This document shows, in pieces, positions 7,173 through 35,689 of a stretch of DNA of 64,000 nt. Positions within the stretch are counted from its first letter, which is position 1, and every line of letters begins with the position of its first letter. The stretch lies in assembly GCA_963575745.1 (NCBI GenBank), contig CAUYUJ010000295.1, positions 1-64,000 of the forward strand, written 5' to 3'. The translations under genes were made by a program, and so were the position numbers. This stretch comes from Prorocentrum cordatum. Its lineage: Eukaryota. The notes under the pieces were generated by a model, which saw nothing but the letters and a program-made list of their open reading frames with translations, was not told the origin of the DNA and searched no databases.

Positions 7173-8429
7173 TGATCAAAGATAAAACAAGTTGGACTAT
7201 CATAACGTAAGACTCGTGTACAGGGGGACTCGAGTTGGCCTGACGGGGCCATCATGAAAATTACGAGGCCCAATGTCTGAAATCTGACGCGAGCTCCCGC
7301 TGCAAGCATCCCACGAAAATCGGACCGTCAAAATCCAGGACGCGCTCATCAGACAAGTCGGCAAATCTGAGTTCTGGTTTACTCGAGTCTTACGTTTCCC
7401 CGACTCTAGGAAGTCGGGGCTGATTGGAGAGAACTCGCGAGAGTCAAGGGGCTCAAGGACACACGCCAAGAAACATACACAAATCCCCAAAATCCTCCAT
7501 GTATTTTCCCATGCTTTCTGTGTTTTCCGTCTTCCCCACCCCCACTTCCCATAGTTTCCCATATTTCCCTGGGATGCGACGATTCATTGTGTCTGTGTGT
7601 TTTTCCCCTCCCGAAGAACACGCGAAAGGACACAAGACCATTCCGAGGGTCAGATTAGTGCAGAAGGCATGGGTCGCGAGACACAGGACACAAGGGTACC
7701 CCTGGTTTTGCAGGTAGAAGACCCTGACTTTGCAGGCACAAGAAGAAACAACTGCATAAATAGAAACTTCTGGCCATCCGCGCGGATGCCTTGGATCTGC
7801 GCTGGACCCCCCTCCCTGGCGCGCGGAGCGCGCCAGGGGCGGCGCCGGAGGCGCTGCCAGGGCACTCCAGCGCAGATTCGACTGTATATAAAGTTATATG
7901 TATATATATATATATATATGCACACGTGTGTATATATATGTATATAGGTATGTATGTCTAATCATATTTATATAGATCCATATCTGTTTCCCTCTCTCTC
8001 TCTCTATCTCTCTCTCTCTCTTCGAAGAGACGTGAGGCTCGAGCTCTCGACGCGCCCTCCGTCCACACCCGCCGGTGTGGAGCAACGCCCGTGGACACGT
8101 CGCGGGGGCTTAGCAACCACTGTGTTGATGCTGAGCTGCACTTGGTGTGCTTGTTTTCCACCGCCACCACCGGTGCCACCAGCTCGGGGAGAAGAGCGGC
8201 CAGCCCCCCTAGCTGGTGGTGGTGGTTCTTTCTTCTCGTGTGAATTGGCCCGACGGGGCTGTCGGGAAAAAACTGACGAGGCCCGGCGTGACATCTGCCG
8301 CGAGGCTCCCGCTGCAGACCCTTTCACCGAACGCTGGACCGGCGCAAGGCTCGGGACGGCCGTCCGTCAGCCAAAGAGCGCAGGCACACGCGAGATCTGC
8401 GGCAACTCGTGGGAGAGGTGATCCAGGAT

Positions 8430-11633: not shown

Positions 11634-11835
11634 TAAGGGAAGAAGCAACGGCATAAATATTAAAACAAATCGGAGGTCCGCGCGGATTCCTCGGATCCGC
11701 GCTGTGGCCCCCTGGCGGCGCCTTTGGCGCCGCCCCTGGCGCGCTCCGCGCGCCATGGAGGGGGGTCCAGCGCGGATCCGACAAACCCGTGCTAACCTCA
11801 GAATTTGTATGTTTATGCCATTTTTTGTTCCCCTA
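11634..11835. mobile_element. MITE family A (~200 bp, ~75-bp TIRs, 5-bp TSD). Copies: 4583-4691 (internally deleted), ~7740-7885 (partial), 11634-11835, 14455-14652, 20811-21013, 25155-25848 (expanded), ~26791-26995, 48764-48963, 49121-49325, 58886-59084, 59573-59771
   Basis: Ends T(C/A)GGGGAAC...GTTCCCC(G/T)A with 'tccgcgcgga' arms. Perfect TSDs: ACACC (20806/21014), GCATC (49116/49326), GATCC (58881/59085). Near-perfect: TCTGG/TCTTG, TAGAA/TCGAA. Confidence 0.9.
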
Positions 11836-13894: not shown

Positions 13895-14452
13895 TCAGTC
13901 GCTGCTGCTCGCATCGTCACTGCTGCTCCCACCTTCGCCGTCTTCGAAGCTTTCGTGAATCGTCTCGCTCTTATCTCTTGCCATCGTGGGATTAGCGTCG
14001 TTGAGCGCATTCCAGATCTCATTCTGAGTATTCACCCTGACCATGTCCATGGCAATCTCTTCCTGAGTCTCCTTTTCATTCGCATCAAACTTCTTCTTTG
14101 GCACACGTGAGACGCCCATGCGCTGCGACGTGCCCAACACTGCGAACACGGCAGCCAAGCTGAGATAGCCAATCATGAAGGCCGCCTGCGAGACGCCGAA
14201 TGCACCCTTAGTGCCTGTGAAATTCTGAAACGTAAGATCCGCACGAGGTTGGTGGACAATACCGAAGGTCGACAAGAACGCTCCCACAAGCGCCCAAATC
14301 GAACACTGCATGAAATTGGCATTGATGGCGAAGACGACCATTGCTGTCAGGATGATCGCAGATAGCAGGGAGCCATAGCCGAGAGCCATCAGCGAGGGAC
14401 TCCCTGCCCCTGGAGGCATCTGAGAGTTCGCCCAGTCTGCGATGGCTGGCAT
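13895..14452 (-). CDS. NCS2/AzgA-related nucleobase permease, last exon (exon 9)
   Basis: MPAIADWANS...GYGSLLSAIILTAMVVF...LSTFGIVH...GYLSLAAVF then an acidic tail and stop; several TM helices; taag| acceptor. Confidence 0.9.
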   Translation of the reverse strand: MPAIADWANSQMPPGAGSPSLMALGYGSLLSAIILTAMVVFAINANFMQCSIWALVGAFLSTFGIVHQPRADLTFQNFTGTKGAFGVSQAAFMIGYLSLAAVFAVLGTSQRMGVSRVPKKKFDANEKETQEEIAMDMVRVNTQNEIWNALNDANPTMARDKSETIHESFEDGEGGSSSDDASSSD

Positions 14453-14655
14453 CTTAGGGGAACGGAACATTACATAAACAGAGAACTCGGAGCTCCGCGC
14501 GGATTCCTTGGATCCGCGCCGTTCCCCCCTCCCTGGCGAGCGGAGCGCGCCCGGGGCGGCGCCGGAGGCGCCGCCAGGGGGGTCCAGCGCGGATCCGAGA
14601 AATCCGCGCGGACCTCCGAGTTTGTATGTTGATGTCATTGTTCGTTCCCCGACAT

Positions 14656-14844
14656 GAGTCCGATGATAGCTGCAGGGAGGTGCCGATTCTCGATGTTGCC
14701 GAACGTGTCCTGGTTGATCGCGAGCCCAATGAACAGCACGATCGGCGCGATGGCATACGGAGGGACGAGCGCGGCCACCATCGAGAACTGCCCGGTAACG
14801 CACATGAAGCAGAACAGCGCGCAGTTGAAGAAAGAATAACTCGC
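14656..14844 (-). CDS. Permease exon 8 (both boundaries ambiguous by a few nt)
   Basis: ASYSFFNCALFCFMCVTG...APIVLFIGLAINQDTF...HLPAAIIGL matches the family motifs GYS..NG, PIL..IGL.I..Q.F and HAPA..GL.P. Confidence 0.88.
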
Positions 14845-15615
14845 TGGCCCAATGGGCCAGAGGCGTGCTGAGATCTCTGGTTGTGTTGCTCCCATCGCGC
14901 TTAAGGACCATCTCCCAGAAATAATTTCGAGCACCCAGAAAAGTATCGAAACTGTGTCGGACGAGTATCGCCTCCCAGGGCCAGACACGTGGAAACCTTC
15001 AAGTTTTGGTACTTCCTTGGTGCGCGAAATCCCACCAGTCCTCTGGGCGTAGGTGGTCTAGGGAGCTTCCTCTTCCAATTCCCTTCTTCCCCGTCGGGGA
15101 GGGATTTATCACTGTTCCCTATTCATAAACACCCCCTCCCCCACCTGGCCTGCAGCCAACCCAGAATCATGCGGGCCCCCCCCCCCCAACATCCCTGCCA
15201 ACAACACAATACAAAATGCACATTGCGGGGCCCACCCTGCCAACACCCTCCACAATCCCTGTCCACAAAAATATACGAAGTGCACTTTGCAGCAAAATCT
15301 GGGCAGTGCGCTGGCGCCCTTGGAGCACGTGGTGTTGTTTTGCTGACAGGGATGGCGGGGCACCCCTAATGAAACCACTTTGTGCAGGACCACCCTCCGT
15401 GTCAAAAACAATGCAAAGTGCACGTTGCAACAACGTCGTGGGCGTTGTGCTGGCCAACCGCGATCACTTTGTATTGTTTTTGACCGGGACGGCGGTGGTG
15501 CTCGCATGATGATGTTTGCTATGCGCAAGCCCAGAACAATGCTGGCGCCCCCCACGTCAGCACCTGGACTATGCGGACGGGGGGGCATCACGTTTTTTTG
15601 TTGTTTTGTTTTTGT

Positions 15616-15651
<36 letters not shown>

Positions 15652-17525
15652 CTTACAAGGATGGCGCACCACCCGCATGTGGAGCCCGCGGCGAGCGTCG
15701 CGCCCCTGGCGTCCGCTTTGGTTCCCAATGGCTGTCCATCCAGTGGCGACCCCTGGCTATGCCGAGACTCGGATGCCACTTATATGGCGGGGGGGCGGGT
15801 GGGAGTGAGCTAAACGGCTTGCGTGCGGAGAGGGTGTCTTGACTCCTCCCCCCACCCCCCTCCCCTGGACCTGGACGGGGGGGCCGCGACGCGTTGGAGC
15901 GTCCAAAACGGTTCCGGCGAGAAAACGGATCTCATTTGTTCAAAAACAGTTGTGACCCCATTTTGGCATCTTGGGGGGGCAATGCTAATTAAAACTCTCC
16001 CTTTTTTTTGATCGATGTCCTCCAAGATGGCCCCAAGAGCGCTCCCAAGGCTCTCAGAAGCGCTTCAGCAGGGCCCCAAGAGGCGCATGGGAGGCCCCAG
16101 GAGGCCCCAAGAGGCGCCCGAGAGGCCTCCAAGAGGCTCCCAAGAGACCCCCAATGGGCACGAAGCATCCAAGACCCTCCAAGAGGCCTCCGGGTCAGCC
16201 AAGGGGCCCCCAGGACGCTCCAAGAGGCTCCTCTGCGTGCTGCCCACTTCCCTGATCGAGGCAACTCCTCCGGGCATCGTTTCTGGATGGGCTGGTGGAG
16301 TTACTTTTTGAATCGCGGCCCGCAAGGAGAAGTCCAGAGGGCGGTGTGACCGAGGCTGGGGCACAGCGACAGATAATTGGCGCGACATCGCGCAGAGTGC
16401 ACCTGCAGATAATTAAAAAGAGACGACCACGGTTCAACCCGCGGGTGGAAGCGAACCGAACGCGAGCCCAGCCGCTGAGCATGTGTCGGCAGAAGAGGGC
16501 AACCGCGGTGGGGAGAGCAGAAGCCCTGGTGCCACCACGCGGACCCCGAAAGCCGCTGAGCGTGTGCCAGCAGAAAAGGGCCAGGCGGGAACAGGTCGGA
16601 CCCGCAGGTGGAGTACCGACTGCCAGGAGGCGCGAGGAGAGATGGACAGCAAAACCTAGGGGGAAGCGTGGCAAATCCACTCACTTGACTCCCAGTGCGT
16701 GGGCCAGCGTGTACGCGGGCCACACACAAGCCACCGGGGGGGTTCGTGCCACAGAGCATACTTTTCACGGCCCGCACTCCCAGTCAATGCCTGGGAAAGG
16801 TTATTCAGCCGTCCACAGGGGAGGCCCGCGGTGGCCGCAGGTGCCATGACGGTGTGGTGCCTCCGCTCCCAGGAGGCACAAACTGTGGCCAGAGCCAACA
16901 TCTAGCTAGACGGCAGGGCGGTGCCTTTGGCCGTCGACCCTGTCCGCCGCGGGCCGGCAAGCGGCCAAACTATGAGTCCAAAAATGCCGACCGCACTGTC
17001 TACACGCCCATGTGTATGGGGGTCAGAAGTGGTAGTCGCTCCTGCGAGCGACGACGTGGAAGTCACTGCACGTTGCCGACTCCAAAGGATGGGGCACATG
17101 GAGGGGCCGCGTGGTGGAGTTACGCGAAGCGTCTAGAATTATTTCTGGTGGTCATAACTAAAATAGGTTGGAATCTCATACTCTCTGGTAGCGGATTTGC
17201 AGCTCTTCTAATTCGCGCGTTCCTCTTGGGCTGCCTTGTGGCATTATTGGGGGCCTCCTGGGCCGCGTCGGGCCGTCGCGCGCCCGAAAAGGCGGTGGCG
17301 CTCAAATGCTTCAGACACCCTGGGAACATAAGTACTTATTGGCTCTCTGGGTCTTCTTCGGGGTTCGTTTGAAGCGCCGTTTGGGTGTTCTAGAAGCCTC
17401 CTTCATGGACATCTTGCGGCGCTCTTGGACTGTCTCGGACCCGCGTGGCCTCGCTGCAGGCTTCGATGAAGGCTCATGGAACTCCTGGACGCCCAGACAA
17501 AAAAAAAAACATCCCTGACCCAGGG

Positions 17526-17704
17526 TCGGGGGCGTTCAAGAGGGTGGGGGCGCAAATCATGGCGGGCGGCACGTGCGCGGTCAAAGGGGGGGGGGGGCCG
17601 GGGTATTGAAATAAGAAAAAGTGCCGTGAAATGTGGGGCGACATCATGGCTCCCGCCATGAGATCCCCCACCCTAATCATCACCCCCCTCTTGGCCGCCC
17701 CCGA
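17526..17704. mobile_element. MITE family B (~180-200 bp); other copies 22096-22288 and 24878-25075
   Basis: TIR tcgggggcggtcaagagggg ... cccctcttgaccgcccccga; 5-bp flanks aatgc/aatac and tcttt/ttttt (no clear TSD at this copy). Confidence 0.85.
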
Positions 17705-18217
17705 CGCAAGGGTGGCCGGGCTGCGCCCAGGCTGCGCCCGGGACACTTTTCGCCCAGGGGACCCAGGCGGCCCAAGAGGCCCCTCTTTCTTCCCAAGGTG
17801 GCTCGAGACGTCTCAAGTTCTGTGCGTGTGAAACCATCACAGCTGCATTTTGCGGCGGTATTCGCCGTTCCTGCAGCCAAGGGTCTGACATGCCCCTCCA
17901 TGTTCGGCTGCCAGCACACGGCCCTGTCGTCTCTGTCCAAGGACTCCGCAAAGTCGTCTGGGAGAGGCTCTATCGCCCCCGAGCGTAGCATCTCCGTGCA
18001 TGCGTTGGGGGGGGGGCATCCCGAGGAGGTGACGAGTGCAGCGGAAGCGCTGCCGGAAGTCACGTTGGCACGCTGGGCAAACGCCGTCCGCCTTGACGTA
18101 CCTCTAGGTCGGGCATGTCCCCCCACAGGGGGATTTGGGACGAAAAATCAAAACAACAAAAATATGCTAACGGAGTTCCTCACATAAAGATGTTACGGGG
18201 TTCCATTGCTTCTTGAC

Positions 18218-19428
18218 TGCGCTCTGGTGGGGCCTCCCTGGAGGGGTGGGAGGGGCACGAAACCTGATGAATAATATGGTGTGCGAATACCCTGCCCGCT
18301 CTGGTGGGGCCTCCCTGGAGGGGTGGGAGGGGCACGAAACCTGATAAATAATATGGTGTACGGATACCCTGCCCGCTCTGGTGGGGCCTCCCTGGAGGGG
18401 TGGGAGGGGCACGACACCTGATAAATAACATGGTGTGCGAATACCCTGCCCGCTCTGGTGGGGCCTCCCTGGAGGGGCGGGAACGGCACGAAACCTAATA
18501 ATAAAATATGGCGTGCGAATACCCTGCCCGCTCTGGCGGGGCCTCCCTGGAGTGGCGGGAGGGGCACGAAACCTGATAAATAATATGGTGTGCGAATGCC
18601 CTGCCCGCTCTGGTGGGGCCTCCCTGGAGGGGTGGGAGGGGCATGAAACCTGATAAATCATATGGTGTGCGAATACCCTGCCCGCTCTGGCGGGGCCTCC
18701 CTGGAATGTTGGGAGGGGCGCGAAACCTGATAAATAACATGGTGTGCGGATACCCTGCCCGCTCTGGTGGGGCCTCCCTGGAGGGGTGGAGGGGCACGAA
18801 ACCTGATAAATAATATGGTGTGCGAATACCCTGCCCGCTCTGGTGGGGCCTCCCTGGAGGGGTGGGAGGGGCACGAAACCTGATAAATAACATGGTGTGC
18901 GAATACCCTGCTCGCTCAGGCGGGGCCTCCCTGGAGGGGTGGGAGGGGCACGAAACCTGATAAATAACATGGTGTGCGAATACCTTGCTTGCTCAGGCTG
19001 GGCCTCCCTGGAGGGGTGGGAGAGGCACGAAAACTTATAAATAACATGGTGTGCGAATACCCTGCTCGCTCAGGCGGGGCCTCCCTGGAGGGGTGGGAGG
19101 GGCACGATACCTGATAAATAACATGGTGTGCGAATACCCTGCCCGCTCTGGTGGAGCCTCCCTGGAGGGGCGGGAGGGGCACGAAACCTGATAAATAGCA
19201 TGGTGTGCGAATACCCTGCTCGCTCAGGCGGGGCCCCTCTGGAGGGGTGGGAGGGGCACGAAACCTGATAAATAACATGGTGTGCGAATACCCTGCTCGC
19301 TCAGGCGGGGCCTCCCTGGAGGGGTGGGAGGGGCACGAAACCTGATGTATAAATAATACCCTGCCCGCTCAGGCGGGGCCTCCCTGGAGGGGTGGGAGGG
19401 GCACGAAACCTGATAAATAACATGGTGT
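18218..19428. repeat. 77-bp minisatellite, about 15.7 copies, intronic
   Basis: Unit gaataccctgcccgctctggtggggcctccctggaggggtgggaggggcacgaaacctgataaataacatggtgtgc; unit starts at 18285, 18362, 18439. Confidence 0.95.
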
Positions 19429-20365
19429 GAGGAAAGGCATGGTATGGTATGGGATGATGGATGCATGGTATGGTATGGTAAGGTATGGTATGGAGTGGCA
19501 TGGTATTGGTATGGTACGATACAGTATGGGATGGTGGAGGAAGCGGGAGGAGGAGGAGGAGGAGGAGGAGGAGGAGGAGGAGAGGATGTTCTGGGAAAAC
19601 AAGAACCCCACTCAGGACGTGGGGAAAAAAACTACCCCGAACATGCTCAAACCTAGCCAAACAAATTATCAAAGCATCGTCCCCCTATTATTTGTTGGAC
19701 TATGTTGGGGTCTTCCTGCTGTAGAGAGACAGGCCGGACTTAAAACGTGCCGCCTCGCTTCGTCCCCGACGCCGTGAGCGGCGACGAGCCGGTGCTGCGC
19801 GGGGCCCCTCACGAGAGGCGCCGCGAGGCTCTCGAGAGAGCCGCCGCGAGGGGGGCCCCCGAGGCCGCCGGCAGGCCCCCGAGAGGCCCCGAGGGGCCGT
19901 TGGTACAGGGCACGAGGAGGAAGCGCGGTGACACAACACAATCCGAGAACTCCGTTGAGCACGCGCATGTGCTCGCAGCACATGCAAGCACGATTCACAG
20001 CACAAAAACGACGGGAACGTCCAGAAAACGAGAGGCCCCGAGCGGCCCCGAGCAGCGGATCCCCCGAGAGGCCCCCAGGATCTGTCTCTTCTCAGCGCAG
20101 CACCGTCTCGCAACCAGAAAGCCCCCGGAGATCCCCAGGAATGCGGCCAAGCCGCCCCCCAGGAGGCCTCCCAGAAGACCTCACGCCTCTCAAAGGGGCG
20201 TCTTGCCCACGACCCGCTTTGGCCCCCAGGAGTGCCCCAACAAGCCATCGAGAGGCCTCCTCCTCCTCCCCCTCCTCTTCCTGCTTATCGCTCGCCACTG
20301 GCACGCCACCAGAGCAGCAGTGATGCAGTATGGGCCGGCGGGATGAACGAAGCGATTGAATATAT

Positions 20366-20809
20366 TGTCCCTCCCGCGCGCTTGAGTGGCTTGTGGCTGC
20401 AGAAAACGCACGTGCCGAAAGGGGACCCAAACAAAGCGGACACCATCGTCGTGCATCCATCGACGACCAGCGTCTCCTTCACGCTGTACGGGTCACCCGC
20501 CTCGTGCGCATTGTACACAGACACCAATGTGTTGATAGCGCCGACAAAGGCTACAGGCAGAATGACCGAAATGTTTTCCAGTGCCACCTCTGGTATCTCA
20601 AAGAAGGCCTGCGTATCCAAAAGCCTAGGCGTATAGAAACGGAAGATCGAGGCGGCATTCTTGACCGACTCCCAAGTGCCGCCATCCTTGTCGACCTTGT
20701 CCTCTGGCCACCCTGAGCTGAACACCCATCCCATGAAGGCGCCAGCCAACATGATCATGACTGCGTTTGGAATCGGGTAGAACTTGACCCCGACGAAGTA
20801 ACCCAACAC
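20366..20809 (-). CDS. Permease exon 7
   Basis: VLGYFVGVKFYPIP...SVYNAHEAGDPYSVKETLVVDGCTTMVSALFGSPFGTCVFCSHKPLKRAGGT contains the hallmark A..AGD.Y...DG...LFGSPF; ctag|GTG acceptor. Confidence 0.93.
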
Positions 20810-21017
20810 CTAGAACACCAAATAACTAAGGAAAATTACAATTCTGGAGACCCGCGCGGATTTCTCGGACCGATGCTGGGCCCACATCTCCAGAGCGCGC
20901 CGGGGGTGGCGCCAAAGGCCCCGCGAGGGGTGCGGAGAGAAGGCCAGCGCTGGCGCAAGAAGTCCACGCGGGCCTCCAAATGATCTACGTTTGTACAGTG
21001 TCTCCGTTCCCGAACAC

Positions 21018-21140
21018 CGCAGTGGCCAGTGGCACAAAGCCCAAGTGCCCCGCGGCGAAGACCTTCATCAGCTGGGCGATGCCCAAGTGCGTCAGGCCGA
21101 CGCCAGCTAATGCGATCAGCAGCGCTGGTTTCGGGGCCAC
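21018..21140 (-). CDS. Permease exon 6
   Basis: 123 nt, VAPKPALLIALAGVGLTHLGIAQLMKVFAAGHLGFVPLATA (P..ALL..LAG motif); AG and GT boundaries. Confidence 0.92.
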
Positions 21141-21344
21141 CTTCATGTGTTGTTGTGCGCGTGGGTCTGTAAGAACATATACATCACTTCATAGGCAATT
21201 GTATGCAAGTGTGTATGCTTCTATCTATATTCTCAAATGCGCTTACGTATGTGTGTGGGCATATGCGTGCAGTTGCTAACCTGTGCAGTTATGATGTTTG
21301 CAGATCTTGATACCCAACCTCACAAGAACACATGTTGGAAGAAC

Positions 21345-21419
21345 CTTCATGATGGCCGGGCCAGCGAACCCGACCAAGGCAGCAATGAATCCAGCGGCAA
21401 GGTTCGCCACGGTGGTCAC
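21345..21419 (-). CDS. Permease exon 5
   Basis: 75 nt, VTTVANLAAGFIAALVGFAGPAIMK; gaag|GTG and AAG|gt boundaries. Confidence 0.9.
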
Positions 21420-23931
21420 CTTCGTCGCGGAAGCGCGCAAAAGAAAGACTCAGAATGAGACGCATCTCTGCTGGCACGACGGATCAGGGTCATGAAATGA
21501 GGGTAGCGGGTCCACGACAACTGGGCTTGCATCGGACTTCTTTGTCATTTTGAATGGCTTTCGGCGGACCCGAGTGAAACCCCTGATCTTCCTAGTCGCC
21601 TTCAAAATCAGTAGTTTGCTGAACCAAAGTCTCAACATTGTTTCCGACGCGACATTTCGTCATCAATAGATTGTAATGCGCCCTGAACTTGGACACGTTG
21701 GCCTGCACATTCCGAACTTCGCCCATCCCATTCCGCAATGCCGCCCCATTCTGGCCAGCTTGCCTGCCCCCCAATCGCGACCCCACAGTCACCCTGACTC
21801 CCTGGTGGCACTGCTCACTGTGACAGCACGTGCTAGACTCGTGTTGTCTGACTTCGCTAGCATAACCACTGATCAGATCCGCCACCGTACCGCAGGCTCG
21901 GAATGGACAAGTCCCTCTGAGTTCTCCATGTTGGATTAAGTAAAAAGCCTCTTGGGGCGCGCACGGGCGCTCCGTGTTTTCTCCCGCGTGGCCATTCTCC
22001 CCGAGGCCTCGGGACGGACGGCGTGCCTGTTCAGTTCCCACTTTTGGGGATTGTTACTGTTGGTCTTCCTTGTCTGATGCTCCGCTTGATTCTTTTCGGG
22101 GGCGGTCAAGAGGGGGGCGTCTCAGAGGGGGGGGTGCAAATCATGGCCGGCGGCACGTGCGCGGCCCAAGGAGGGGCCAGGGACGTAATGCAATGAGAAG
22201 AGCCGCCATGAAATCTGGGGACATATCATGGCCCACGCCATGATATCCACCCCCCCTTAGTCATCACCCCCCTCGTTGCCGCCCCCAATTTTTAATCGAA
22301 GAGCCCCTCCCGGGGCTCGCACCCTGTTTTTTAGAAAGGGAATTAATTGGCTGGCCACGTGGCCCCCGAACCACAACAACGTATTCGGCCTCGCGCACCC
22401 GCGCAGGGCCTCCTCACAGTGTGTGCAAGGATCGCGCTCTCGCGCGGGACTTCCTCGCCGCCTACTCACAAAGCGAAACCATGACACTCGGGCATGACGC
22501 TCTCGCCCTGGACTTCCTGACGATCTCCTTGGGATCGCGCTATCGCTCGAGACTGCCTAGCGGGTCATATAAGACTGACGCTTCAGCGACCCGCCCGCTC
22601 GACCTGGCCGCTTGGGCCCGCCCGCCCGCCAAGGTCCTCCCGCCCGACCCGCCCGTCTGGTTGTGCCACTGGTTTTCATGCTCCCATCCCCTGAGAATCT
22701 CGCTCATGTTCCGTTCTGCTCCGTCCCCCGTGTCCCGTCCTTCCATCCTCCCTCTCGTCCCCTGGGGCTGCACCAACTACACAGAGCAGGTAAGGTAGGT
22801 AACCCCCCCCCCAAAGGGACACGATCGAAGACGAAGAGGGCGGGTATCGAAGGTTTGGGATATACGTTCTGAATGGCATGCGAGCAAATAAAAAACAAGC
22901 ATTCTTAAATTGATTGCTGTTGCTGAATTCTCATGTCGAAGGTCAGTGAATGTGCTCCTCCTGGGGTTCGCACCCTGTTTTCTTAGAGGGGAAGGTCTTG
23001 TGCATCAGACTGCGCCCCCGCCACCGTTGTGCAACAGCAGCGGCTCCCGCCTGATACGCCCTGACAATTTAATCCAAGTCGCGCTCTCGCGCAGGACTTG
23101 CTGGCAGTGGACATGGATACACTCAGCCTACTCAGGGCCCGAACATATCTAGATGCACCGCCTGCAGGCCCCCCAGGCGCATGGGCAGGTCCCCGCGTTG
23201 GAATGGTGGCCTTCCCGAAATCAGCATTTGGTCGGGCGGGTCCCCCTACGGGCGGTTTTTTGGGTGAAAACTGCAAACTAGTCCAGCAATAATCCAAAAT
23301 ATAACAATATACTAGAAATATCGTCCCCATACTATTTTGACATGTTTTTGCATATACCTCCTGTAGAAAGACAGGCCCGACTTACGATCAGCAACCCCTG
23401 GGCCGCAACGAGCCATGTGCCATGCCGGGCTGACTGGGCGGGGTACAGACAGAGCTCCACGACGGCACGGGGGCGGGAGGGATGCCGCGGCCACGGCGAG
23501 GGCGCCGGGATCCGCTTGTGGCGGACGCTGCCGCGGCAGTCTTCGACACGACCGGGACCCTCCTCCAGGAACAGGCGCGGCTGGCTGGGGTCCTGCCCAC
23601 CCAGACCCCCGACGTCATGACTTTTCCATGACGCGACCCCCAGAGGTCTGGACCCATTCTCCGGGACCGGCTTCTCATCCCGAGTCGGTTTTTGGCGGTC
23701 CTGAGGCCCGTGAAGGGCCCCCAGAGAGCGAAAGTAGCGAAAAACCTTACGTCGTGACTTTTTCATGACTCGAGGGGGTCCTGCCGACCTGGGCGCTGGC
23801 CCCCGACACCGCGCGCAGCGTCGTCACCCTGGAGCGATGGAGGGTTCTGCCGATGGCGCCGGATCGCTCGACGTCGGCCGGCCGACCCAAGGACCACGCG
23901 CGGCGCTCCACCTGGAACGCCCGCGCTGGGG

Positions 23932-24100
23932 CCAGGTCGGGCACGTCCCCCCTGCAGGCGGATTTTTGGACGGCAAGTGTTTCAAACGTCACACATGCAA
24001 AAATAGCACAAATATGTATGATAAAAACAAAAAGCCGCCCCAGACCATGTTTTTAACGATCTTGGACTGCTCCTCCTGTAGAGGGGCGTGCCCGACTCAA
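23932..24100. mobile_element. MITE family C (hAT-like, ~130-170 bp, 8-bp TSD). Copies ~9593-9760, 10501-10650, 18105 (partial), 19610-19743, 23227-23385, 23932-24100, 24266-24432, 45765-45918, 46881-47041, 50510-50660, 55822-55952, 58452-58610, 58693-58845, 60450-60613, 63590-63750
   Basis: TIR ttaagtcgggcgtgtccccctacagg ... cctgtagagggacaggcccgacttaa; TSDs cgctgggg/cgctgggg, gatcaggg/gatcaggg, aatcagca/gatcagca, ggcaagga/ggcaaggt. Confidence 0.9.
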
Positions 24101-24568
24101 CGCTGGGGTCGCCGCCGCCTCGACACATCACGGCACGAGCCTGCTGCTCCCTGGGGACAGATGCATGCCTCCGCCCTGATTGCGCCCCACTCTGGACCGC
24201 CCGCCCGAGGCGAGAGATAAGTATCTCCCCCCCCCGGCATGCGGAGGATTTCGCACGGATTGAACTCAGACCGGGTATGCCATCCTACAGGCGGATTCTG
24301 GAAGGAAACAGCAAACACGGTCAAACCAGATTCAGAGATCTGCAAGAAGTAGTCGAAACATCGTCCTCTGACTATTTTGTTGACTATCTTTGAATGTTCC
24401 TCCTGTCGAGGGACATGCTCGACCCAAGGTTAAACATGATGAACGATGAATCAGAATCTAAATCACCCAGAGGAATCATAAGATTGGATCTTACGCTTCA
24501 ATTCCCGTCTGTGGCACTGCAAACGGGAAGCCATCATGTTTCATATTTGGACCACCCTTCTTCGTCGC

Positions 24569-24876
24569 CTTCCAAGCGTAATTGATGCCTTCCTCCCATT
24601 CCATGCCAGCCTCCTTAGCATCGCGTGCAGCCACGGCCATGATGTTGTAGACGAACGCAAATGCTGCAGCAGTGTTGACGCCGTACGGCATGCACATGTG
24701 GTCGCTCCGGCCGTCTACCCTCATCATGCGAATCGCCATCCAGGCATAGTAAAAATTACCGAATATCATGGTGATGCACATGCCATTGAGGATCCTGCCG
24801 TAGATGAGGCCCGAAATGAAGTCGTTCATCTGCGCCGTATCCACGCCTTCGTCCCCCTTCCAGGGTGATGACAATG
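24569..24876 (-). CDS. Permease exon 4
   Basis: ...GRILNGMCITMIFGNFYYAWMAIRMMRVDGRSDHMCMPYGVNTAAAFAFVY...YAWK contains the family motif GN..Y...A......GR.D...PYG.NT; GC donor AAG|gc. Confidence 0.92.
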
Positions 24877-25082
24877 CTCGGGGGCTGCCAAGATGGGGGC
24901 GTCCAAGATGGGAGGGCGCAAATCATGGCCAGCGGCATGTGCGCGGCCCAGAGGGGTGGCCAGGGACGTATTGAACTATATAAGAGAAGGCGCCATGAAA
25001 TCTGGGGAGATATCATGGGACCCGCCATGAAATCGACCTTCCCTTAGTCATCAGCCCCCTCTTGACCGCCCCCGAAATACAC

Positions 25083-25148
25083 CACGCATCCCCCCCACGA
25101 CTGCGACGATCGTACCCGTGATCTGAAAGAATAAGTTCAGGCCACAGT
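25083..25148 (-). CDS. Permease exon 3 (boundaries ambiguous by about 5 nt)
   Basis: DCGLNLFFQITGTIVAVVGGMR is the first TM helix following the GDxD motif; bounded on both sides by MITE termini. Confidence 0.78.
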
Positions 25149-25848
25149 CGATGATCGAGGAAGAAACACACGCGTGCGAACAGAACAACTGCCGGAAATC
25201 CGCGCGCGGTTTTCTCCCGGTTCGGCGCTGGACCCCCCCTTTCTCTGGCGCGGTGCTAGAGCGCCAGGGGCGGCGCCCAAGTTGGACGCAAATAAATGGG
25301 GTGGGCGAGAAAAAGACGATTCCAGAAACCCTGAACCCAAAAACGTTTTCATCTCTTTTGGGCGCATTTGTTACTTCCGCCACCTTCCACCGCCCTTCCG
25401 CCGGCTTCCGCCAGCGGAGGCGGCCTCGTTTCACTTCGGCCACCCTTCCGCCGCCCTTCCGCGGCGGAAGAGATGATAACTCCTTCGATCCTCGCAGGCA
25501 AGGCGATTTTTGGAACGCCTCAGCTGGTGGAGGGGGGGAAGAAAGGGGCGACTCGGGCCCTCAAGGCCCTCTTCTGGGCCCCAGCAGGCCTCTCCAAGGG
25601 CCCATTGTAGGGCCGCGCTTCGGCAGCCCTCGCCGTCCCCTCATTTATCGCCCCACCCATTCGCGCGCCCTCCAACCCAGGAGCCGCCCAAGGGGGTCCT
25701 GCGCCGACCCAAGCACTCCGCGCGGACTCCTCCTCCTCCTCCTCCTCCTCCTCCTCCTCCTCCTCCTCCTCCTCCTCCTCCTCTCCCCCTCGTTTCCCCT
25801 CCCCCTCCTCCCCCTCCCTGTCTGCTTCTGCAGGTGTTTCCTCTTCGA

Positions 25849-25890
25849 GATGTCGCCTACCGCCGGGGCGACGGGGAGGAGCCCGCGGAC
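25849..25890 (-). CDS. Permease exon 2
   Basis: caag|GTC acceptor; VRGLLPVAPAVGDI. Joined to exon 3 it gives GDID, the conserved N-terminal motif. Ends exactly at a family-A terminus. Confidence 0.7.
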
Positions 25891-26267
25891 CTTGCAGCAT
25901 CGAATTGGCATCGAAGCGGCAAAATCGGATCGGACCGACATGTGCGTCGGATCGGGCTGCATCGGCACGGAGTCGGAATCGAATCGGATCGGCCACGCCT
26001 GTTTTCCACCACCACCACCACCATAAGTTGGAGGGGGGAAGGAGGTGGAGGATGAGGAGGAAGAAGAGGAGGACCCCCTCCCCCCTCAAACTTATGGTGG
26101 TGGTGGTGGTGATGGAAAATAGGCACAACAGGATCGGCCACGCGGCCAAGCCACCTTGCACGGCAACGCCAGGCAACCATCGGGCCGCATCGGAGTGTCG
26201 GCACATCGGGATCGGATCGAATCGGGCCAGCCACCATCGACATCGAATTGTGTCGATTGGACCGAAA

Positions 26268-26457
26268 CCCAGACCCCCGACGTCATGTTTTTTTCCATGA
26301 CGCGAACCCAATAAATACGCATGGACCCATTTCCAGGAACTGGTTTTTCATCCTGAGTCGTTGTTTGACGGTCACGAAACCAGGTAAGGGTACCCAGAGG
26401 CCGAAAATAGCGAAACGCCTTCCGTCGTGACTTTTTCATGACTCGAGGGGGTATGGG
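26268..26457. mobile_element. MITE family E (CCC...GGG termini, 2-bp TSD, CMC/EnSpm-like). Copies ~5702-6076 (interrupted), ~9981-10165, ~23601-23783, 26268-26457, 45371-45552, 61022-61209
   Basis: cccagacccccgacgtcatga ... tcatgactcgagggggtctggg; flanks AA/AA, AA/AA, AC/AC. Confidence 0.8.
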
Positions 26458-26707
26458 AATAAACCCTGCCTTGGCACGCTTGGACTTCTTCGGCGGCTCG
26501 CCGGCCATAACCGGAATCTCGCAGACGGTCGGGCGGTGCCCCTTCGGCCGTAAGAAGCCCCCGCTGCGCGCACTCGGGCAGCCTGGATCCAAAAAAATCT
26601 GCGCACGCGCGCGCGGGAGTGAGCGATCGACGTCGGCGTCGCAGGCGGCACAGTGAAGATAACAACTAAAGGAAAACGGCCAGCGAAGTACAACCGAAGA
26701 GCTTGAC

Positions 26708-26734
26708 GAGCACGCGCGGGGGCTCTTGTCGCAT
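26708..26734 (-). CDS. Putative permease first coding exon (MRQEPPRVL)
   Basis: gacgccATG context; in-phase CTC|gt donor; UTR-like sequence upstream. Tentative. Confidence 0.45.
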
Positions 26735-27121
26735 GGCGTCGACAAAGAGCAAGTGCAACAGCTGTGGTTTCAGAACAGCTGTGGCTGAGGTCGAGGAACA
26801 CCAGAGTCCACCACATGAGCATGAACTTCCCGAGGTCCGCGCGGATCTCCTGGACCAGTGCGAGACCCCCCTGGCGGCGTCTCCCGCGCCGCGACTGGCG
26901 CGCTCAGCGCGCTAGGGAAGGGGTCCAGCACAGATCCAAGATATCAGCGCGGATCTCCAACAATTCATGTTTATGTAACTGTTGTTCCGCCCCCGCTCTT
27001 CTTCTCCCCCCCCTCCCCCTCAGAGGCACAACGTTTGCTCTCCGTTGCGCGCGTGCTTGTTCAGGCCACTGCGCTGTAGCCTCGCCCGTTTACGGGCCAA
27101 CCCATGTGGTTTGATCGGGCC

Positions 27122-27619: not shown

Positions 27620-28330
27620 TTGGCATCCACTTGTACCCCCCTATCTCCTTAGCGGCCACCGCTGTGATTCCAATCATGTTGCCCTGCGGCTTGCGGGTCA
27701 CGACCCGGGTCTTTGGTGCACGTTCGTGACAAGCCAGGCCCCCCCCCTGATGCCTCTCGGCAAGTCGCAGCTGCTGAAACGCACCTCGAGGCTGGACATC
27801 CACCGAGAACCTTAGAAAAACGCCCCCGAAAACCGTTCCTCGAGACCACGACGCTGGCTCTGTCCAGAGTGCGACGCTTCTTCGACGGGGGCGCCCAGAA
27901 CGTGGCCGAAATCGGCGCGCTCCCCCCCGCAAAAATGGGACGCCCGAAGCGTGCACGGGAAACATGGGCACGATACTGCACCCAGCAACACATGTTGTGG
28001 ACTACCGTCAGCGACCGCTGTGTTGCCAGGCGACTTCTTGCTTCAAATGGACAACGCCCGCGGCGACACCGACAGCGACTTCGGTGCAAACTGGACTGGA
28101 GCTTCTGTTGCTACCCCTTCTTTCAAAGTACCCACTCCGATCGCATCGACACAGAACGCCGACCACCGCTGCCCGAAGGTGGTGGACCTCCGCCGGCGCC
28201 CGCGGGCACGCGCCTGCGGCCGAGCGGAGGAGGGGTGCCACCCCTTCGAGCCTCAGCGGACCGTCCCGCGGTGGGATGAGGTGCGGCGCGGGTCCCCGTC
28301 TGCGAAGGAGACCCGGGCGGGTCCCGAAAG
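27620..28330 (-). pseudogene. Decayed Copia-like integrase fragment
   Basis: Frameshifted ...SPRALS..., ...NGFRGRFSKVL...EA...GL..., resembling an rve core; same strand as, and downstream of, the LTR/PBS at 32455-32741. Confidence 0.4.
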
Positions 28331-28994
28331 CATCAGGGCGTGAGGCTATTGGCCGTGTTGAGCCGTCGGGGGCCCCTGCCCGGGCCCTGGGACCGTCAAC
28401 TGACGACTCGAGATGAAAAGCGGGTCCCTAAGAAGGGGTCGGGACTTCCGGGGACCCCATACTGACATCGCACGTCTGGGAATGGGTCCTCGAGGAAACC
28501 AGGAAATCCGATCGACATGGGCGTCGGACCTGGCTGCCTCGGAATGTTGCGCGCAGTCGGGAGCTGCGTAATGAAGCAGGATGAGGGTGGTGTGGCGGGT
28601 GAGCAGGAGGAGGAACAGAGAACAAATGATGAATCTGTGGACGGAGGACGAAGGCGAGCATCAACAGCACCAAGAGTTGGAGTGGAAAGACCGGGAGAAA
28701 CAGGAGGATCAGGGGAAGGCCGAGGAGGGAGAATACGGAGGGCGACAACGATGAAAAAGAACTCGGATCCAGAAAAGTGGTCCATGTTGGGGCGAGAGGG
28801 CCATTCTGAACGACCGGAGCCGATCCGAAAATGCGTCCCTCGCTGCAGCGGGAACGCCATGGGAATACCGAAAGCCATCGAAGTGCAAACTACGATACAT
28901 AAACCGTTGCTTCAAATCCTGCGTGCGAGGAACAAAACATGTACGCGGAGAGGGGGGAACATCTTACGCACAGAGTCTGGGGAAATAAAAATAA

Positions 28995-29170: not shown

Positions 29171-30409
29171 CGCAACACGCGATCGCTCCAGGAGGCGGGC
29201 GGAGCGCGCGCGGAGAGGCGTGGCGCGGGGGAGGCGGCCGTTGCTTCGAAGGCCCCTGGCCCTGTTCGAAGCCGGGCCGCCTTCTGAGAGGGCCGCGGCC
29301 ACCTGGCGCAACCCCTGTGCGCAGGCCGCCACCAAGGAGGAGGGGGGCGACCCGGGCGACCCTCCTCGGTCCTTCTCCTCGGCCCTCCTCGGCCCTCCTC
29401 CTCCTCCTCCTCGATCCTCATCCTCGATCCTGCTCCATCGGTCCTCGGCCCTCATCCTCATCCTCCTCTTCCTCGGCCCTCCTCCTCGGTCCTCCTCGAT
29501 CCTCCTCATCATCCACTCTTCTCCCTGGTTCTCGGCCCTCCTCTCCACCTCCTGTGGAACCCTCGATCCTCGACCCTCTTCCTCCTCCTCAGCGTTGCCC
29601 TCGTCGACCCGCGAGGAGGAGCAGGAGGAAGAGGAGCAGGAGGAGGAGGAGGAAAGGGAGGAGGAGGAGGAGGAGGAGGAGGAGGAGGAGGAGGAGGAGG
29701 AGGAGGAGGAGGAGGAGGAGGAGGAAGAAGAGAACGAGGAAAAGTCGCGACGCGCGCGGATCAACGACGGGCCCCGTTGCCGTGCAGACTCGGGGGGCGC
29801 TCCGTCGCCGGACATCGGGCGGCGCTGGCCTCCCGCTTCGGCGGGGTATCCCTCCCCGATGCGCGGACCTGGCACCCGGGCGCCAGGTCCAGGGATCCCC
29901 CTGCTCCTGCTGCTCCTGCTGCTCCTGCTGCTCCTGCTGCTCCTGCTGCTCCTGCTGCTGCTCCTCCTCCCTCCTCTCCTCCTCCCCTCCTCCTCCTCCT
30001 CCTCCTCCTCCTCCTCCTCCTCCTCCCTCCTCCCCTCCTCCTCCCCCCCCCGCCCCTGCTGCCTGCCGTGTCGTCTCTTCGTCGTCGTTGCTCGTTTCTC
30101 TTGCCTCGGGGCACCCCGCGGCTGGTAAAAAAGAGTGCCCGAGTCCCTCGGTCCTCGATCCTCCTCCTCCCTCCCACCCTCCCTCCCTGGTACTATCGGG
30201 CGGGTGTGGGTCATGGGGCCCCTGTCGGCGACCAATAGGCGATTCGGGGTCGGTGCATCCCCCTGAGCCTATCCCCTCCTAGTGTTGCCCCTGACCTCCT
30301 GGGTCCTCCTCGTCCCCCCCCTGGGATCCCTCGATCCTCCTCCTCCCTGCCTCTCTGGCTCTCTCGACCCCCCAAGTTTCCTGGTACGCGCCTTCAACAA
30401 CTTCAACAG

Positions 30410-32998: not shown

Positions 32999-33440
32999 TG
33001 GAGGAGGAGGAGGGGAGGAGGGGGAGGGGGAGGAGAAGGAGGAGGAGGAGGAGGAGGGGGAGGAGGGGGAGGGAGAGGAGAGGAAGGGGAGGAGGGGAGG
33101 AGGAGGAGGAGGAGGGAGGAGGGGGAGGAGGAGGGGAGGAGGAGGAGAGGAGGAGGAGGAGGAGGGGGAGGAGGGAGGGGGAGGGGGAGGGGAGGGGGAG
33201 GGGGAGGGGGAGGAGGAGGAGTAGGAGGAGGAGGAGCAGGAGCAGCAGGAGCAGGAGGGGGAGGAGGAGGAGGGAGGGGAGGGGAGGAGGAGGAGAAGGA
33301 GGAGGAGGAGGAGGAGGAGGAGGAGGAGGAGGAGGGAGGAGGAGGAGGAGGAGGAGGAGGAGGAGGAGGAGAGGAGGAGGGGAGGAGAGGAGGAGAGGAG
33401 GAGGAGGAGGAGGAAGAGGAGGAGGAGGAGGGAGGAGGGA
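32999..33440. repeat. (GGA)n tract; other major GGA/CCT tracts at 6085-6230, 29370-30050, 57010-57155, 58078-58360, 61214-61635
   Basis: Direct inspection. Confidence 0.9.
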
Positions 33441-35689
33441 ACGCGCGACGATTCGTCTGGACACAGGCCTGCCCCCCCCCCCCCCTCCCCTCCGGGCCCT
33501 GGGCTCTGGGAGGGTCGCGCCCGCTCCTGCACGCACCGTGCGCTGCCGCCGGCGCCGACGACGTCGAAGGGCCCCTGGGAAACGCAAAGAAATACTCACA
33601 GACAACAGGATTCCACATATCTTGCCATGTTTTTGGGGGGATTTTCGTCTTCCCCCACTTCCCATGTTTTGCATGTTTTCCGGGGAATCGACGATTCATT
33701 GTGCCTGTGTTTTTTTTTCCCTGCTGAGAAGCTCTCGTCCGAAACGAAAAACGGCACAGCAACTACACGACCGCATCGGGTCCTGGAACTTCGAACGTAT
33801 CAATGCCCTGCTCTGTTGCGTGGGAATCAAATTTCCACCCGGACTTTGAGCGGCGGTCTTTCCAACAACATCCCCCCCTCCTGCTGATGGAGCTGTGTGT
33901 GGGACTCAGCCGTTGAGCGTCTTTTCGTGCGCAGGTCTGCAGGCGGCCCTCCAGAAACCTGGCCTCCGCTGCCAGAAGAAAACATCCCGACTCAAACAGC
34001 TAGAACTGAGCGGCGCTCGTCTTGGCGACATCAAACTTTGTCATACAGTCCGCGGGCAACAACAGATGCGGCATCCATCCGATAACCTGACTTACCCTGC
34101 CCATCAAATCTATGACCACGGCCACATCTATACCAACTCTCCTATCGGCCGTCGATACGTCAGACAGCTTGCTGAGAGTGCCGTGAATACCTGTAGCATC
34201 TACACTACTCAGACACTTGTTCTAGAGGGGGGGTAAGGAATGACAGGTTTAGGGTATCAGGGCCACGATCGATCCAACCATGTCCTGCCAAAAATCGTTG
34301 ACCACGCTTCCCCGGGTAGCGTTTTCGAACATGAGATGTGACCACTGGGCCTCAGCAAGGACCCCTGATAAGGCCAGAGTCTCACCGGCTAGTGTCTTAA
34401 CTACCAGCACCTTTGGACCCGGCAAAACCTCCAGGCCAGAGGGGTGGCCCTCGCGCGCTGACCAAAAGCACGAGGCTGATCGGCTAAGTACACATGCCAA
34501 GCCTGCTGCGGGTGAAAAATGTCGCCGGCACCCACCCTGCCGCCAACGCTGGCCGCGGCGAAAACGCACCGGCTCTGGTCGAAGCGGTGAATGAGCATGG
34601 GCAGTGCTGTAGACGGACGAGGGCGGTCTACCACCTTGTGGGCCTCCAGAAGGTCTTTCGTTCGGGGAGGGATAGCTCGAGTGGCCAGTATCGAGCGGAT
34701 CTGGCTGCTTCGGCGCGAGCTTTGAATATCAACCACTTCGAAGCCCACAAGAGGGGCGTCGTGATCCGACTGAACGAAAATTTGGGCCAACTGCAGAAGA
34801 GTGACTTTTTTCCTGATCCACCCATGTTCTGGGAGTATGTAACCAATCCCCTTTTCCTGAGCATGTTCTTAGGGTGGAGGGCTCAGAGCGAAATCCATAT
34901 GGACTTCTGCACCTCGAAAGTCATATCGAATTGTGATTCACCTACTGCAGATTCAAAACTCGAAAATTCATTAAAACGGCATTTCACATCTCACCCTTTG
35001 CCGTCCACCCACAAAAAGTGTTTGGTTTGCATCAAAACGCTCCTTTTTCCCGGCATGGTGCCTCTTCTTGGACTCGACCGAGATACCTGTGTTCCTGGCC
35101 CATCGGGATAACTATGGCCCCGTCGTCGGCCTCCAGAAACATTTGACAAAACGATTCTCCTGGAACGCCTCTGGGCCAACGCGCGCGGCTCGGGTTTCGT
35201 GCGTTCCAAGCCCGGGCCTTCCAGGAACCTGGAGACGTCTCGTGAAAAACGAGGGGGGCGTCGTCGAGACCACGCACAAGAGCTACTAATTATACGAGGG
35301 CTCCAGGGGCCAGACCCAAGCCCTAACAGGGTTCAACGGAGCCCCCCCTCTTGGTCTTTTGAGTGGATCGGATTGACGAAACAGTTTTGATATCGCCTAC
35401 GAAATTCCATGTTGCACACCAGGGAAATGGTGAGAAACCTCATGACGGACTCCATACTCGGGGTGGGCGGGCAAACGTGCAGCTCAGCCGTGCTTTCATC
35501 CTCGTGGCCCCTGAATCCTCGGGGTGTGGCCTTTTTTCGATTCGATTCGATTTGCGTTCGCTCTTGGATCAGTCTCCGTGCCCAGGAGGCCGCGAACGTT
35601 CAGGCCGTAGCCTCTCCGCGAAACTCCAATTGACCAGGATGGGGTCCGACTGTCAACATGGGAAAAGCGTGCACCGCTAGCGTCGTGGC

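Follow-up and report, generated by a model that had tools for sequence, protein, structure and literature searches.

The DNA analysed here, 64,000 nucleotides (nt) of the dinoflagellate Prorocentrum cordatum (GenBank assembly GCA_963575745.1, contig CAUYUJ010000295.1, positions 1 to 64,000; hereafter the window), carries on its minus strand a permease-like gene whose conserved GDID motif is split by a 699-nt insertion, made up of an expanded miniature inverted-repeat transposable element (MITE) of a family that we call family A and one copy of its target-site duplication. We placed the gene on the window by tblastn with the proteins P0001, P0002 and P0003. P0001, listed by NCBI as 'unnamed protein product [Prorocentrum cordatum]', is 99% identical to the third exon, and P0002 is an 82% identical homologue with the JGI label 'AGZA family xanthine/uracil permease-like MFS transporter'. 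Pfam searches with P0009, P0003 and P0001 returned no family at E <= 0.01, the AGZA/AzgA-like profile included, and a search of solved structures for the host protein gave a single match, weak and irrelevant; because the Pfam match is absent and the JGI name unverified, we call the gene only permease-like. The motif is uninterrupted in the homologues P0002 and P0009 (...VAPAVGDIDCG[IL]NLFFQITGT...) and, as ...IGEINCG... in the wider context ...IGEINCGLNLLCQISGT..., in P0003-P0006. The reconstructed nine-exon frame is intact over 615 codons and aligns without gaps to P0009, P0003 and P0005 at all eight junctions. In nr, the same P0001 sequence is labelled both Prorocentrum cordatum and Polarella glacialis. 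The gene, the insertion and the exons beside it are laid out as follows.

13898..26586, minus strand: permease-like gene, whole, with 9 exons as reconstructed; RNA contigs extend to 26586
25150..25848, minus strand: 699-nt non-canonical intron, register k=0; a shift of as many as 4 nt, to 25154-25852, leaves the product unchanged
25849..25890, minus strand: 42-nt exon (...VRGLLPVAPAVGDI), from RNA contigs, missing from the deposited model
25076..25149, minus strand: 74-nt exon (DCGLNLFFQITGTIVAVVGGMRGV), from RNA contigs, missing from the deposited model
25836..25848, minus strand: 5' terminal inverted-repeat arm TCGAAGAGGAAAC, from sequence reading and an arm pairing test
25155..25167, minus strand: 3' terminal inverted-repeat arm GTTTCTTCCTCGA, 11/13 Watson-Crick to the 5' arm
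25849..25853, minus strand: target-site duplication, exonic copy ACATC, coding for part of D-I
25150..25154, minus strand: target-site duplication, intronic copy TCATC, first base diverged
25727..25817, minus strand: (GGA)n microsatellite of 31 units within the element
25679..25727, minus strand: part of the element that aligns with the inner 5' half of the short copies of family A
25179..25277, minus strand: part of the element that aligns with the 3' half of the short copies of family A

The 699-nt stretch behaves as an intron, missing from the mRNA to the exact base. We compared the window with Logan contigs of four of 21 listed runs (X3, X7, X9 and X10; four studies dated 2015-2025). The RNA nature of the runs is labelled as a guess and was judged here from the depth pattern: in all four, depth is 40-700 on exons and zero over 21604-22071, 22306-23241, 25582-25815 and 26050-26283, so the runs behave as RNA. 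Depth over the interior of the 699-nt intron is zero in every run, with 40-330 on the flanking exons. One contig per run joins 26469 and above to 25889-25849, then to 25149-25076, then to 24872 and below, and in all four contigs the 41 letters between the flanking pieces equal 25849-25889 with no extra insertion. The joint from 25149 to 25849 thereby skips 699 nt with four ambiguous letters, giving the empty-site sequence ...GACATCGAC... and the uninterrupted GDIDCG that an earlier note on this DNA, made from the letters alone, had expected from precise removal.

The same note held that no register of this intron offers a GT/GC/GA-AG pair, and the RNA-defined boundaries bear it out: the five equivalent registers read TC..TC, CT..AT, TC..CA, AT..TC and CA..AT. 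Applied to other introns, the method returned GC..AG for 26469..25891 and GT..AG for 21344..21141 and 21017..20810, so it detects canonical sites where they are present. None of the five registers gives an AT..AC pair, and none starts RTATCC or ends AC in the manner of a U12-type intron (5' consensus RTATCCTY, as quoted in PMC5032977). Rfam covariance models for self-splicing group I/II introns and other RNAs gave no match at E <= 1 in 24800-25900 and none at gathering score in the whole window. The note had named one canonical product that would speak against precise removal, in which a GA donor and an AG 39 nt upstream of the exon leave MITE-derived residues in the motif; it is absent from the contigs of the four runs, and an in-frame GT..AG option (GT 25860, AG 25123; 13 residues fewer) is not used in them either, although minor isoforms of both kinds may lie below contig detection. 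Two further routes were considered and rejected: stwintron-like nested splicing requires a split GT donor and no register begins with G, and editing of a boundary base to a canonical one fails in that no single A>G or C>U change yields a GY/GA start with an AG end in any register.

Direct repeats flanking a hairpin are a classic setting for template switching, and this element has direct repeats at both ends with a hairpin between them; reverse transcriptase could therefore have jumped across an element that is truly present in the mRNA. Such an artefact would leave the unspliced form dominant, yet the interior has zero depth in all four runs. Retention would moreover halt translation about 68 codons into the element (open reading frame 25645-26085), and the 5521-nt intron of the same gene, described below, has a 2-nt repeat and no hairpin. 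We reject this reading, the least probable of the explanations weighed here.

Read directly on the minus strand, the insertion lies within the GDID motif, as ...GTA GGC GAC ATC followed by TCGAAGAGGAAAC ... GTTTCTTCCTCGA TCATC and then GAC TGT GGC.... The earlier note gave its span as 25149 to 25848; the end agrees with the RNA, and the start is the last exon base, one off from the RNA-defined skip of 25150-25848. Between the duplications the element occupies 25155-25848, 694 nt, matching the size that had been proposed. Its 13-nt arms pair at 11/13 positions by Watson-Crick rules (12/13 counting a G.U pair, by inspection), a score reached at equal spacing by 31 of 300,000 random position pairs in the window, and a search for the arm pattern with up to two mismatches finds 7 matches in the window versus 1.6 expected. 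The two copies of the proposed duplication, ACATC and TCATC, are alike at four of five positions and share the exact 4-nt repeat CATC. Growth through unrelated sequence between recognisable termini is likewise apparent, with the (GGA)n array and about 400 nt that match nothing in the family. Membership of family A, also claimed before, is upheld by element positions 122-170 and 572-670, which match both halves of palindromic copies of about 190 nt. The window holds at least nine further family-A matches (7755-7877, 11677-11830, 14492-14647, 20849-20933, 26814-26987, 48804-48923, 49143-49262, 58886-59075 and 59578-59759), two of them introns of the same permease-like gene. A perfect 5-nt duplication surrounds the copy at 58886-59075 (GATCC, 58881-58885 / 59076-59080) and the one at intron 20810-21017 (ACACC, plus strand); at the 699-nt intron and at 11677-11830 the duplications are 4/5 alike.

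Exact loss of an element together with one duplication is also what transposase-like excision and repair would produce, and vegetative cells might eliminate the element from their DNA, like ciliate internal eliminated sequences, with the assembly representing the unexcised form. The assembly, presumably from vegetative culture, nevertheless contains the element, and we know of no report of DNA elimination of this sort in dinoflagellates, a dedicated search for one not having been made. We consider elimination at the DNA level very improbable.

Non-canonical borders recur in this gene: three of its seven RNA-supported introns (699, 203 and 5521 nt) have them, and an eighth intron is predicted to do so. 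The remaining introns are:

24873..25075, minus strand: second non-canonical intron, 203 nt, a family-B MITE with arms TCGGGGGCGG...CAGCCCCCGA and flanks GTATT/GCATT
14838..20358, minus strand: third non-canonical intron, 5521 nt, with registers CA..TT, TC..GT and TT..AG
14450..14652, minus strand: predicted fourth non-canonical intron, an intact 203-nt family-A MITE with repeat ATG, from frame and homology, outside the RNA-covered stretch
25891..26469, minus strand: canonical intron (GC..AG) whose boundaries share the 5-nt repeat CAAGG
21420..24568, minus strand: canonical intron (GC..AG); its 9-nt boundary repeat, GAAGG[C/T]GAC, is imperfect, and contigs also show a form with C for T
21141..21344, minus strand: canonical GT..AG intron with 9-nt boundary repeat CATGAAGGT
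20810..21017, minus strand: family-A copy serving as a canonical GT..AG intron; its 5-nt duplication is perfect and its boundary repeat is GGTGTT

The RNA joint of the 203-nt intron, from 24872 to 25076, is present in X3, X7 and X9, and X10 has the same junction with an adjacent A>G; the registers read TC..TT, TT..AT, TT..CA and AT..GC. That X10 change, G for A at 25078, is synonymous (GTA>GTG), lies one codon before the junction and may be a strain difference or an edit. Other family-B copies lie at 22096-22286 and 17528-17704. The 5521-nt intron is defined by a 30-letter loose end at 20359, found in all four runs and exactly matching 14808-14837. It has a 2-nt repeat only and no clear terminal inverted repeat. 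TCGCT stands 3 bases inside its 5' end and AGCGA 3 bases inside its 3' end (20351-20358, 14838-14845); this 5-bp complement, which begins TCG and closes CGA as in families A and B, may be chance. At the predicted eighth intron, exact removal of 14450..14652 yields the 615-codon frame, and the GT..AG option (CAT^GT...AG^ATG, where ^ marks the cut) leads to a frameshift with a stop at codon 451; from the sequence, we predict that this copy must be excised exactly for the frame to hold.

Family A thus appears in one gene in both forms, removed canonically at 20810-21017 and non-canonically at 25150-25848 and probably at 14450-14652. At 20810-21017 the duplication and the end of the element supply both splice sites (G^GTGT...CTAG^GTGT). 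Repeats of 5-9 nt span the boundaries of all four canonical introns as well, as would fit a transposon origin for each intron of the gene. The boundary repeat of the GC..AG intron 24568..21420 is imperfect, GAAGGCGAC / GAAGGTGAC (21415-21423 / 24564-24572), and both forms occur in contigs. One form at this junction, ...GAAGGTGACC..., fits canonical splicing; a 15-letter loose end at 24564 in all four runs (...GGCGAC^CACC...) may be a register shift within the repeat (GA..AC), a T/C allele or an edit.

In the three repeat-bearing non-canonical introns, what is removed is in each case the element together with a single duplication copy, as RNA shows for two of them and frame and homology indicate for the third, with the same geometry in two unrelated MITE families, A and B. 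In the mechanism that we propose, a family-A MITE would have inserted into the permease-like coding sequence with a 5-nt target duplication and would be excised from the RNA of this very locus. At repeat-bearing introns, the paired termini of the element would bring the exon ends together, and cutting and joining would occur at a fixed distance from the helix, the 5' cut inside the duplication and the 3' cut the same number of bases on. Pairing-guided removal has been proposed for Amoebophrya introner elements and for euglenid nonconventional introns (PMC7789003; PMC12501133). At the 203-nt intron the arms pair ungapped at 18/22 positions (17 or more is reached by 93 of 300,000 random pairs), and the 50-nt end duplex has an energy of -54.8 kcal/mol, reached by 14 of 2,000 random pairs. 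In the minimum-energy fold of this intron (z = -3.6) the termini pair to close the structure, which stacks on a helix formed between the exons. The duplications of the three repeat-bearing non-canonical introns all have AT at positions 3-4 (ACATC 25849-25853, GTATT 25076-25080, TCATG 14653-14657), so that, as a lead from three cases, one shared register could begin each intron AT-N-TCG.

That the element is removed from the RNA of this locus we consider highly probable; towards the full statement, in which a helix of paired termini also defines the intron ends, we lean with some reserve. Several observations weigh against it. Terminal base-pairing had been suggested before as what sets the ends of the 699-nt intron, and in its favour the arms lie exactly at the ends; against it, the 50-nt end duplex, at -38.0 kcal/mol, is reached by 197 of 2,000 random pairs, and the whole-intron minimum-energy fold pairs the 3' arm with (GGA)n and not with the 5' arm, the array competing for this pyrimidine-rich arm. 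End pairing of the 5521-nt intron (-20.7 kcal/mol) equals background. This intron lacks a convincing terminal repeat, so the removal of non-canonical introns does without one in at least one case. Family A is open to the ordinary route as well, as the canonical intron 20810-21017 shows. The RNA evidence consists of assembled contigs, in which pre-mRNA, lariats, circles and rare isoforms are invisible; the DNA side is known from the assembled window alone; and at all repeat-bearing non-canonical junctions the joined product is identical to the pre-insertion sequence. Finally, the duplication length of 5 nt rests on two perfect cases among the aligned copies, and a true length of 3-4 nt would weaken the argument from age made below. 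We discarded RNAduplex energy as a discriminator of terminal pairing, with about 10% of random pairs matching the 699-nt value in this GC-rich, repeat-rich window.

With pairing evidence weak at the 699-nt intron and the repeat absent from the 5.5-kb one, a serious alternative is that an ordinary U2-type spliceosome removes the element at this locus while tolerating nearly any boundary, the repeats being relics without a role. The RNA evidence serves this alternative and the favoured reading equally, and both the unexceptional end-pairing energy of the 699-nt intron and the repeat-free 5521-nt intron fit it. In dinoflagellates the 5' site is already loosened to GT/GC/GA (PMC10666404; bioRxiv 10.1101/2020.10.14.339549), and tolerance of almost any boundary is reported for Fritillaria borealis (review PMC11282704) and has been considered for Amoebophrya. 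A permissive spliceosome would, however, find the helix and the duplication as the sole marks of the cut sites, and the product is exact in all four runs. Removal of the element with one duplication in three of three repeat-bearing cases is not what cryptic-site choice would be expected to give, and canonical pairs nearby (GT 25860/AG 25123 and the GA..AG option) go unused in the contigs. We consider this alternative unlikely, though serious.

The main rival to removal from RNA holds that the window represents a transposon-disrupted copy or allele, that the mRNA derives from an insertion-free copy and that the apparent removal is an empty site. Dinoflagellate genes are often multi-copy (PMC5032977; PMC11453091), and the joined product equals the pre-insertion sequence, as an empty site would. 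Yet the exons of the window equal the X7 contigs at 1219 of 1219 letters and differ from X3 at one in 1221, whereas within the two 5-nt duplications the intronic copy departs from the exonic one at 2 positions out of 10 in all (Fisher p = 6e-5), the arms differ at 2 of 13 and the body of the element has diverged. The insertions are therefore old relative to any divergence of the exons, and an old dead copy is disfavoured because its exons should differ too. In addition, the window copy keeps its frame intact over all nine exons and has its four canonical introns at junctions seen in the mRNA. P0001 is the sole member of its 90% cluster and the only Prorocentrum-named protein among six search hits, with no second one among them; a protein search with the 49-residue open frame around the 24-residue exon gave three candidates, none of which was scored, and is uninformative on a second genomic copy. 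From exon identity set against decayed duplications, indirect arguments though they are, the locus itself is the likely source of the mRNA, and we judge an insertion-free source decidedly unlikely.

Judged by architecture alone, the 699-nt intron is best read as an Amoebophrya-type non-canonical introner in a core dinoflagellate. Introner elements of Amoebophrya A25/A120, likewise dinoflagellates, have 8-20-nt inverted repeats and 3-5-nt direct repeats, form repeated families and are MITE-like with no transposase (Farhat et al. 2021, PMC7789003). The 699-nt intron shows every structural trait by which those elements were recognised: it is RNA-supported and has no fixed boundary dinucleotides (4/4 runs, 5/5 registers), carries inverted repeats of 13 nt (11/13) between its ends and an exact direct repeat, CATC, over its boundaries, and belongs to a family with at least nine further matches within the window. 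Non-canonical introns make up more than 60% of introns in Amoebophrya, compared with 3/7 RNA-supported introns of the permease-like gene, or 4/8 with the predicted one. By contrast with those parasitic Syndiniales and their 0.1-Gb genomes, P. cordatum belongs to the core dinoflagellates, is photosynthetic and free-living, and has a multi-Gb genome in which only GT/GC/GA-AG introns are annotated, and the copy described here has expanded to 694 nt between 13-nt arms.

The Introners of Symbiodinium and Polarella derive from DNA transposons with terminal repeats and 4-8-nt duplications, one copy of which is kept in the mRNA (Roy et al., bioRxiv 10.1101/2020.10.14.339549). Terminal inverted repeats and a duplication of fixed length (5 nt, perfect in two copies and 4/5 in two more) are shared with them, and a 5-nt class is known there. 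In those Introners GH and AG always come from the element or duplication, whereas ACATC and the TCG...CGA ends give neither at the 699-nt intron; the sister copy at 20810-21017 fits their mode of splice-site recruitment exactly. Euglenid nonconventional introns, which occur alongside conventional ones, have variable non-GT-AG borders, end pairing, junction repeats and a suspected MITE origin (Nomura et al. 2025, PMC12501133; PMC11282704), and in Euglena they leave as a full-length circle once the conventional introns are out. All of the former traits have counterparts here: variable borders, arms that can pair end to end, duplication-like junction repeats, MITE origin and canonical introns alongside. 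The euglenid signature 5'-N3CDG-/-CH'GN5-6^R (PMC12501133) is absent, positions +4 to +6 reading AAG, GAA, CGA, TCG and CTC in the five registers; the paired block lies 0-4 nt from the 5' cut, the spacers total 7 and not 8-9, and the lineages are unrelated. In Fritillaria borealis, too, MITE-derived insertions in genes are removed despite non-canonical ends, there by an adapted U2 spliceosome according to a review (PMC11282704); the likeness concerns removal as such.

Dinoflagellate introns with identically repeated intron boundaries (IRIB) bear a 2-9-nt repeat at both ends, one copy of which stays in the mRNA; the repeat invariably includes GG, in most cases AGG, and the cut falls between the Gs (Mendez et al. 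2015, PMC5032977). All seven RNA-supported introns of the permease-like gene have a boundary repeat of 2-9 nt; those of the non-canonical introns, CATC, ATT and TT, differ in having no obligatory GG. In P. cordatum the repeat pattern is reported for 2.4% of annotated introns, which are canonical by construction, and AGG acceptors are unusually low at 79.7% (PMC10666404); the genome paper sought the pattern only within annotated canonical introns (PMC10666404). Our literature search found no report of non-GT/GC/GA-AG introns in Prorocentrum or other core dinoflagellates.

The deposited gene model, P0001, is a concrete failure case of annotation restricted to GT/GC/GA-AG. By running straight from 26470 to about 24856 it leaves out two exons, 25890-25849 and 25149-25076, as well as the beginning of the one that follows, and so loses 44 conserved N-terminal residues. 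For about 65 residues, over 14845-14651, its frame differs from that of the homologues, and it recovers the frame through a spurious GT..AG intron, 14651..14453, that is unusable in the true frame. These errors arise because the genome pipeline admitted only GT, GC and GA donors (PMC10666404).

The wider claim, that core dinoflagellates too possess a GT-AG-independent route that recognises paired MITE termini and excises the element with one duplication from pre-mRNA exactly, accounting for a large share of introns, we hold as tentative, somewhat short of an even chance. If it is true, such 'precise excision' at the RNA level would render exon insertions harmless at once, and truncation or loss of frame would affect many of the gene models published for dinoflagellates; the route would have been overlooked because dinoflagellate annotation pipelines admit only GT/GC/GA-AG. 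Intron birth would tolerate an insertion in a codon of a conserved motif without the element carrying or finding splice sites. A phenomenon known from two strains of Amoebophrya would then also occur in a dinoflagellate that is free-living, forms blooms, can be cultured and has a published genome, transcriptome and proteome, and the removal mechanism (lariat or circle, spliceosome or not) would therefore become testable with existing data. Canonical and non-canonical sister copies of one MITE family in the same gene offer a natural comparison set.

Two metagenome scans were uninformative on presence in nature: one for relatives of P0002 gave 174 pattern matches, none confirmed, and one with a 37-nt exon/intron boundary stretch gave no match. 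Among 120 long open frames outside the gene (at least 110 residues; of 164 passing a composition filter, the 44 within the gene span, 13898-26769, were set aside), Pfam found no match at E <= 0.001. GC content runs between 0.50 and 0.70 along the window, in keeping with the 59.7% reported for P. cordatum (PMC10666404) and with the first of the two species labels of P0001. The GC..AG intron nearest the 5' end of the gene contains a long inverted repeat (minus strand, about 26003-26118) of the form (CCA)n-ATAAGTTTGAGGGG... facing ...CCCCTCCAACTTAT-(GGT)n, probably another small element. Recurring open-frame translations in and around the introns of the gene (…FFMTRGG…, …SHEKVTT… and …HDVGGLG… at 26283-26435, 23388-23762 and 28280-28465) suggest one more family of repeated elements. 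Arrays of low complexity, chiefly (GGA)n/(TCC)n, turn up at many places in the window, for example at 29400-30100, 33000-33450, 57000-58360 and 61200-61640.

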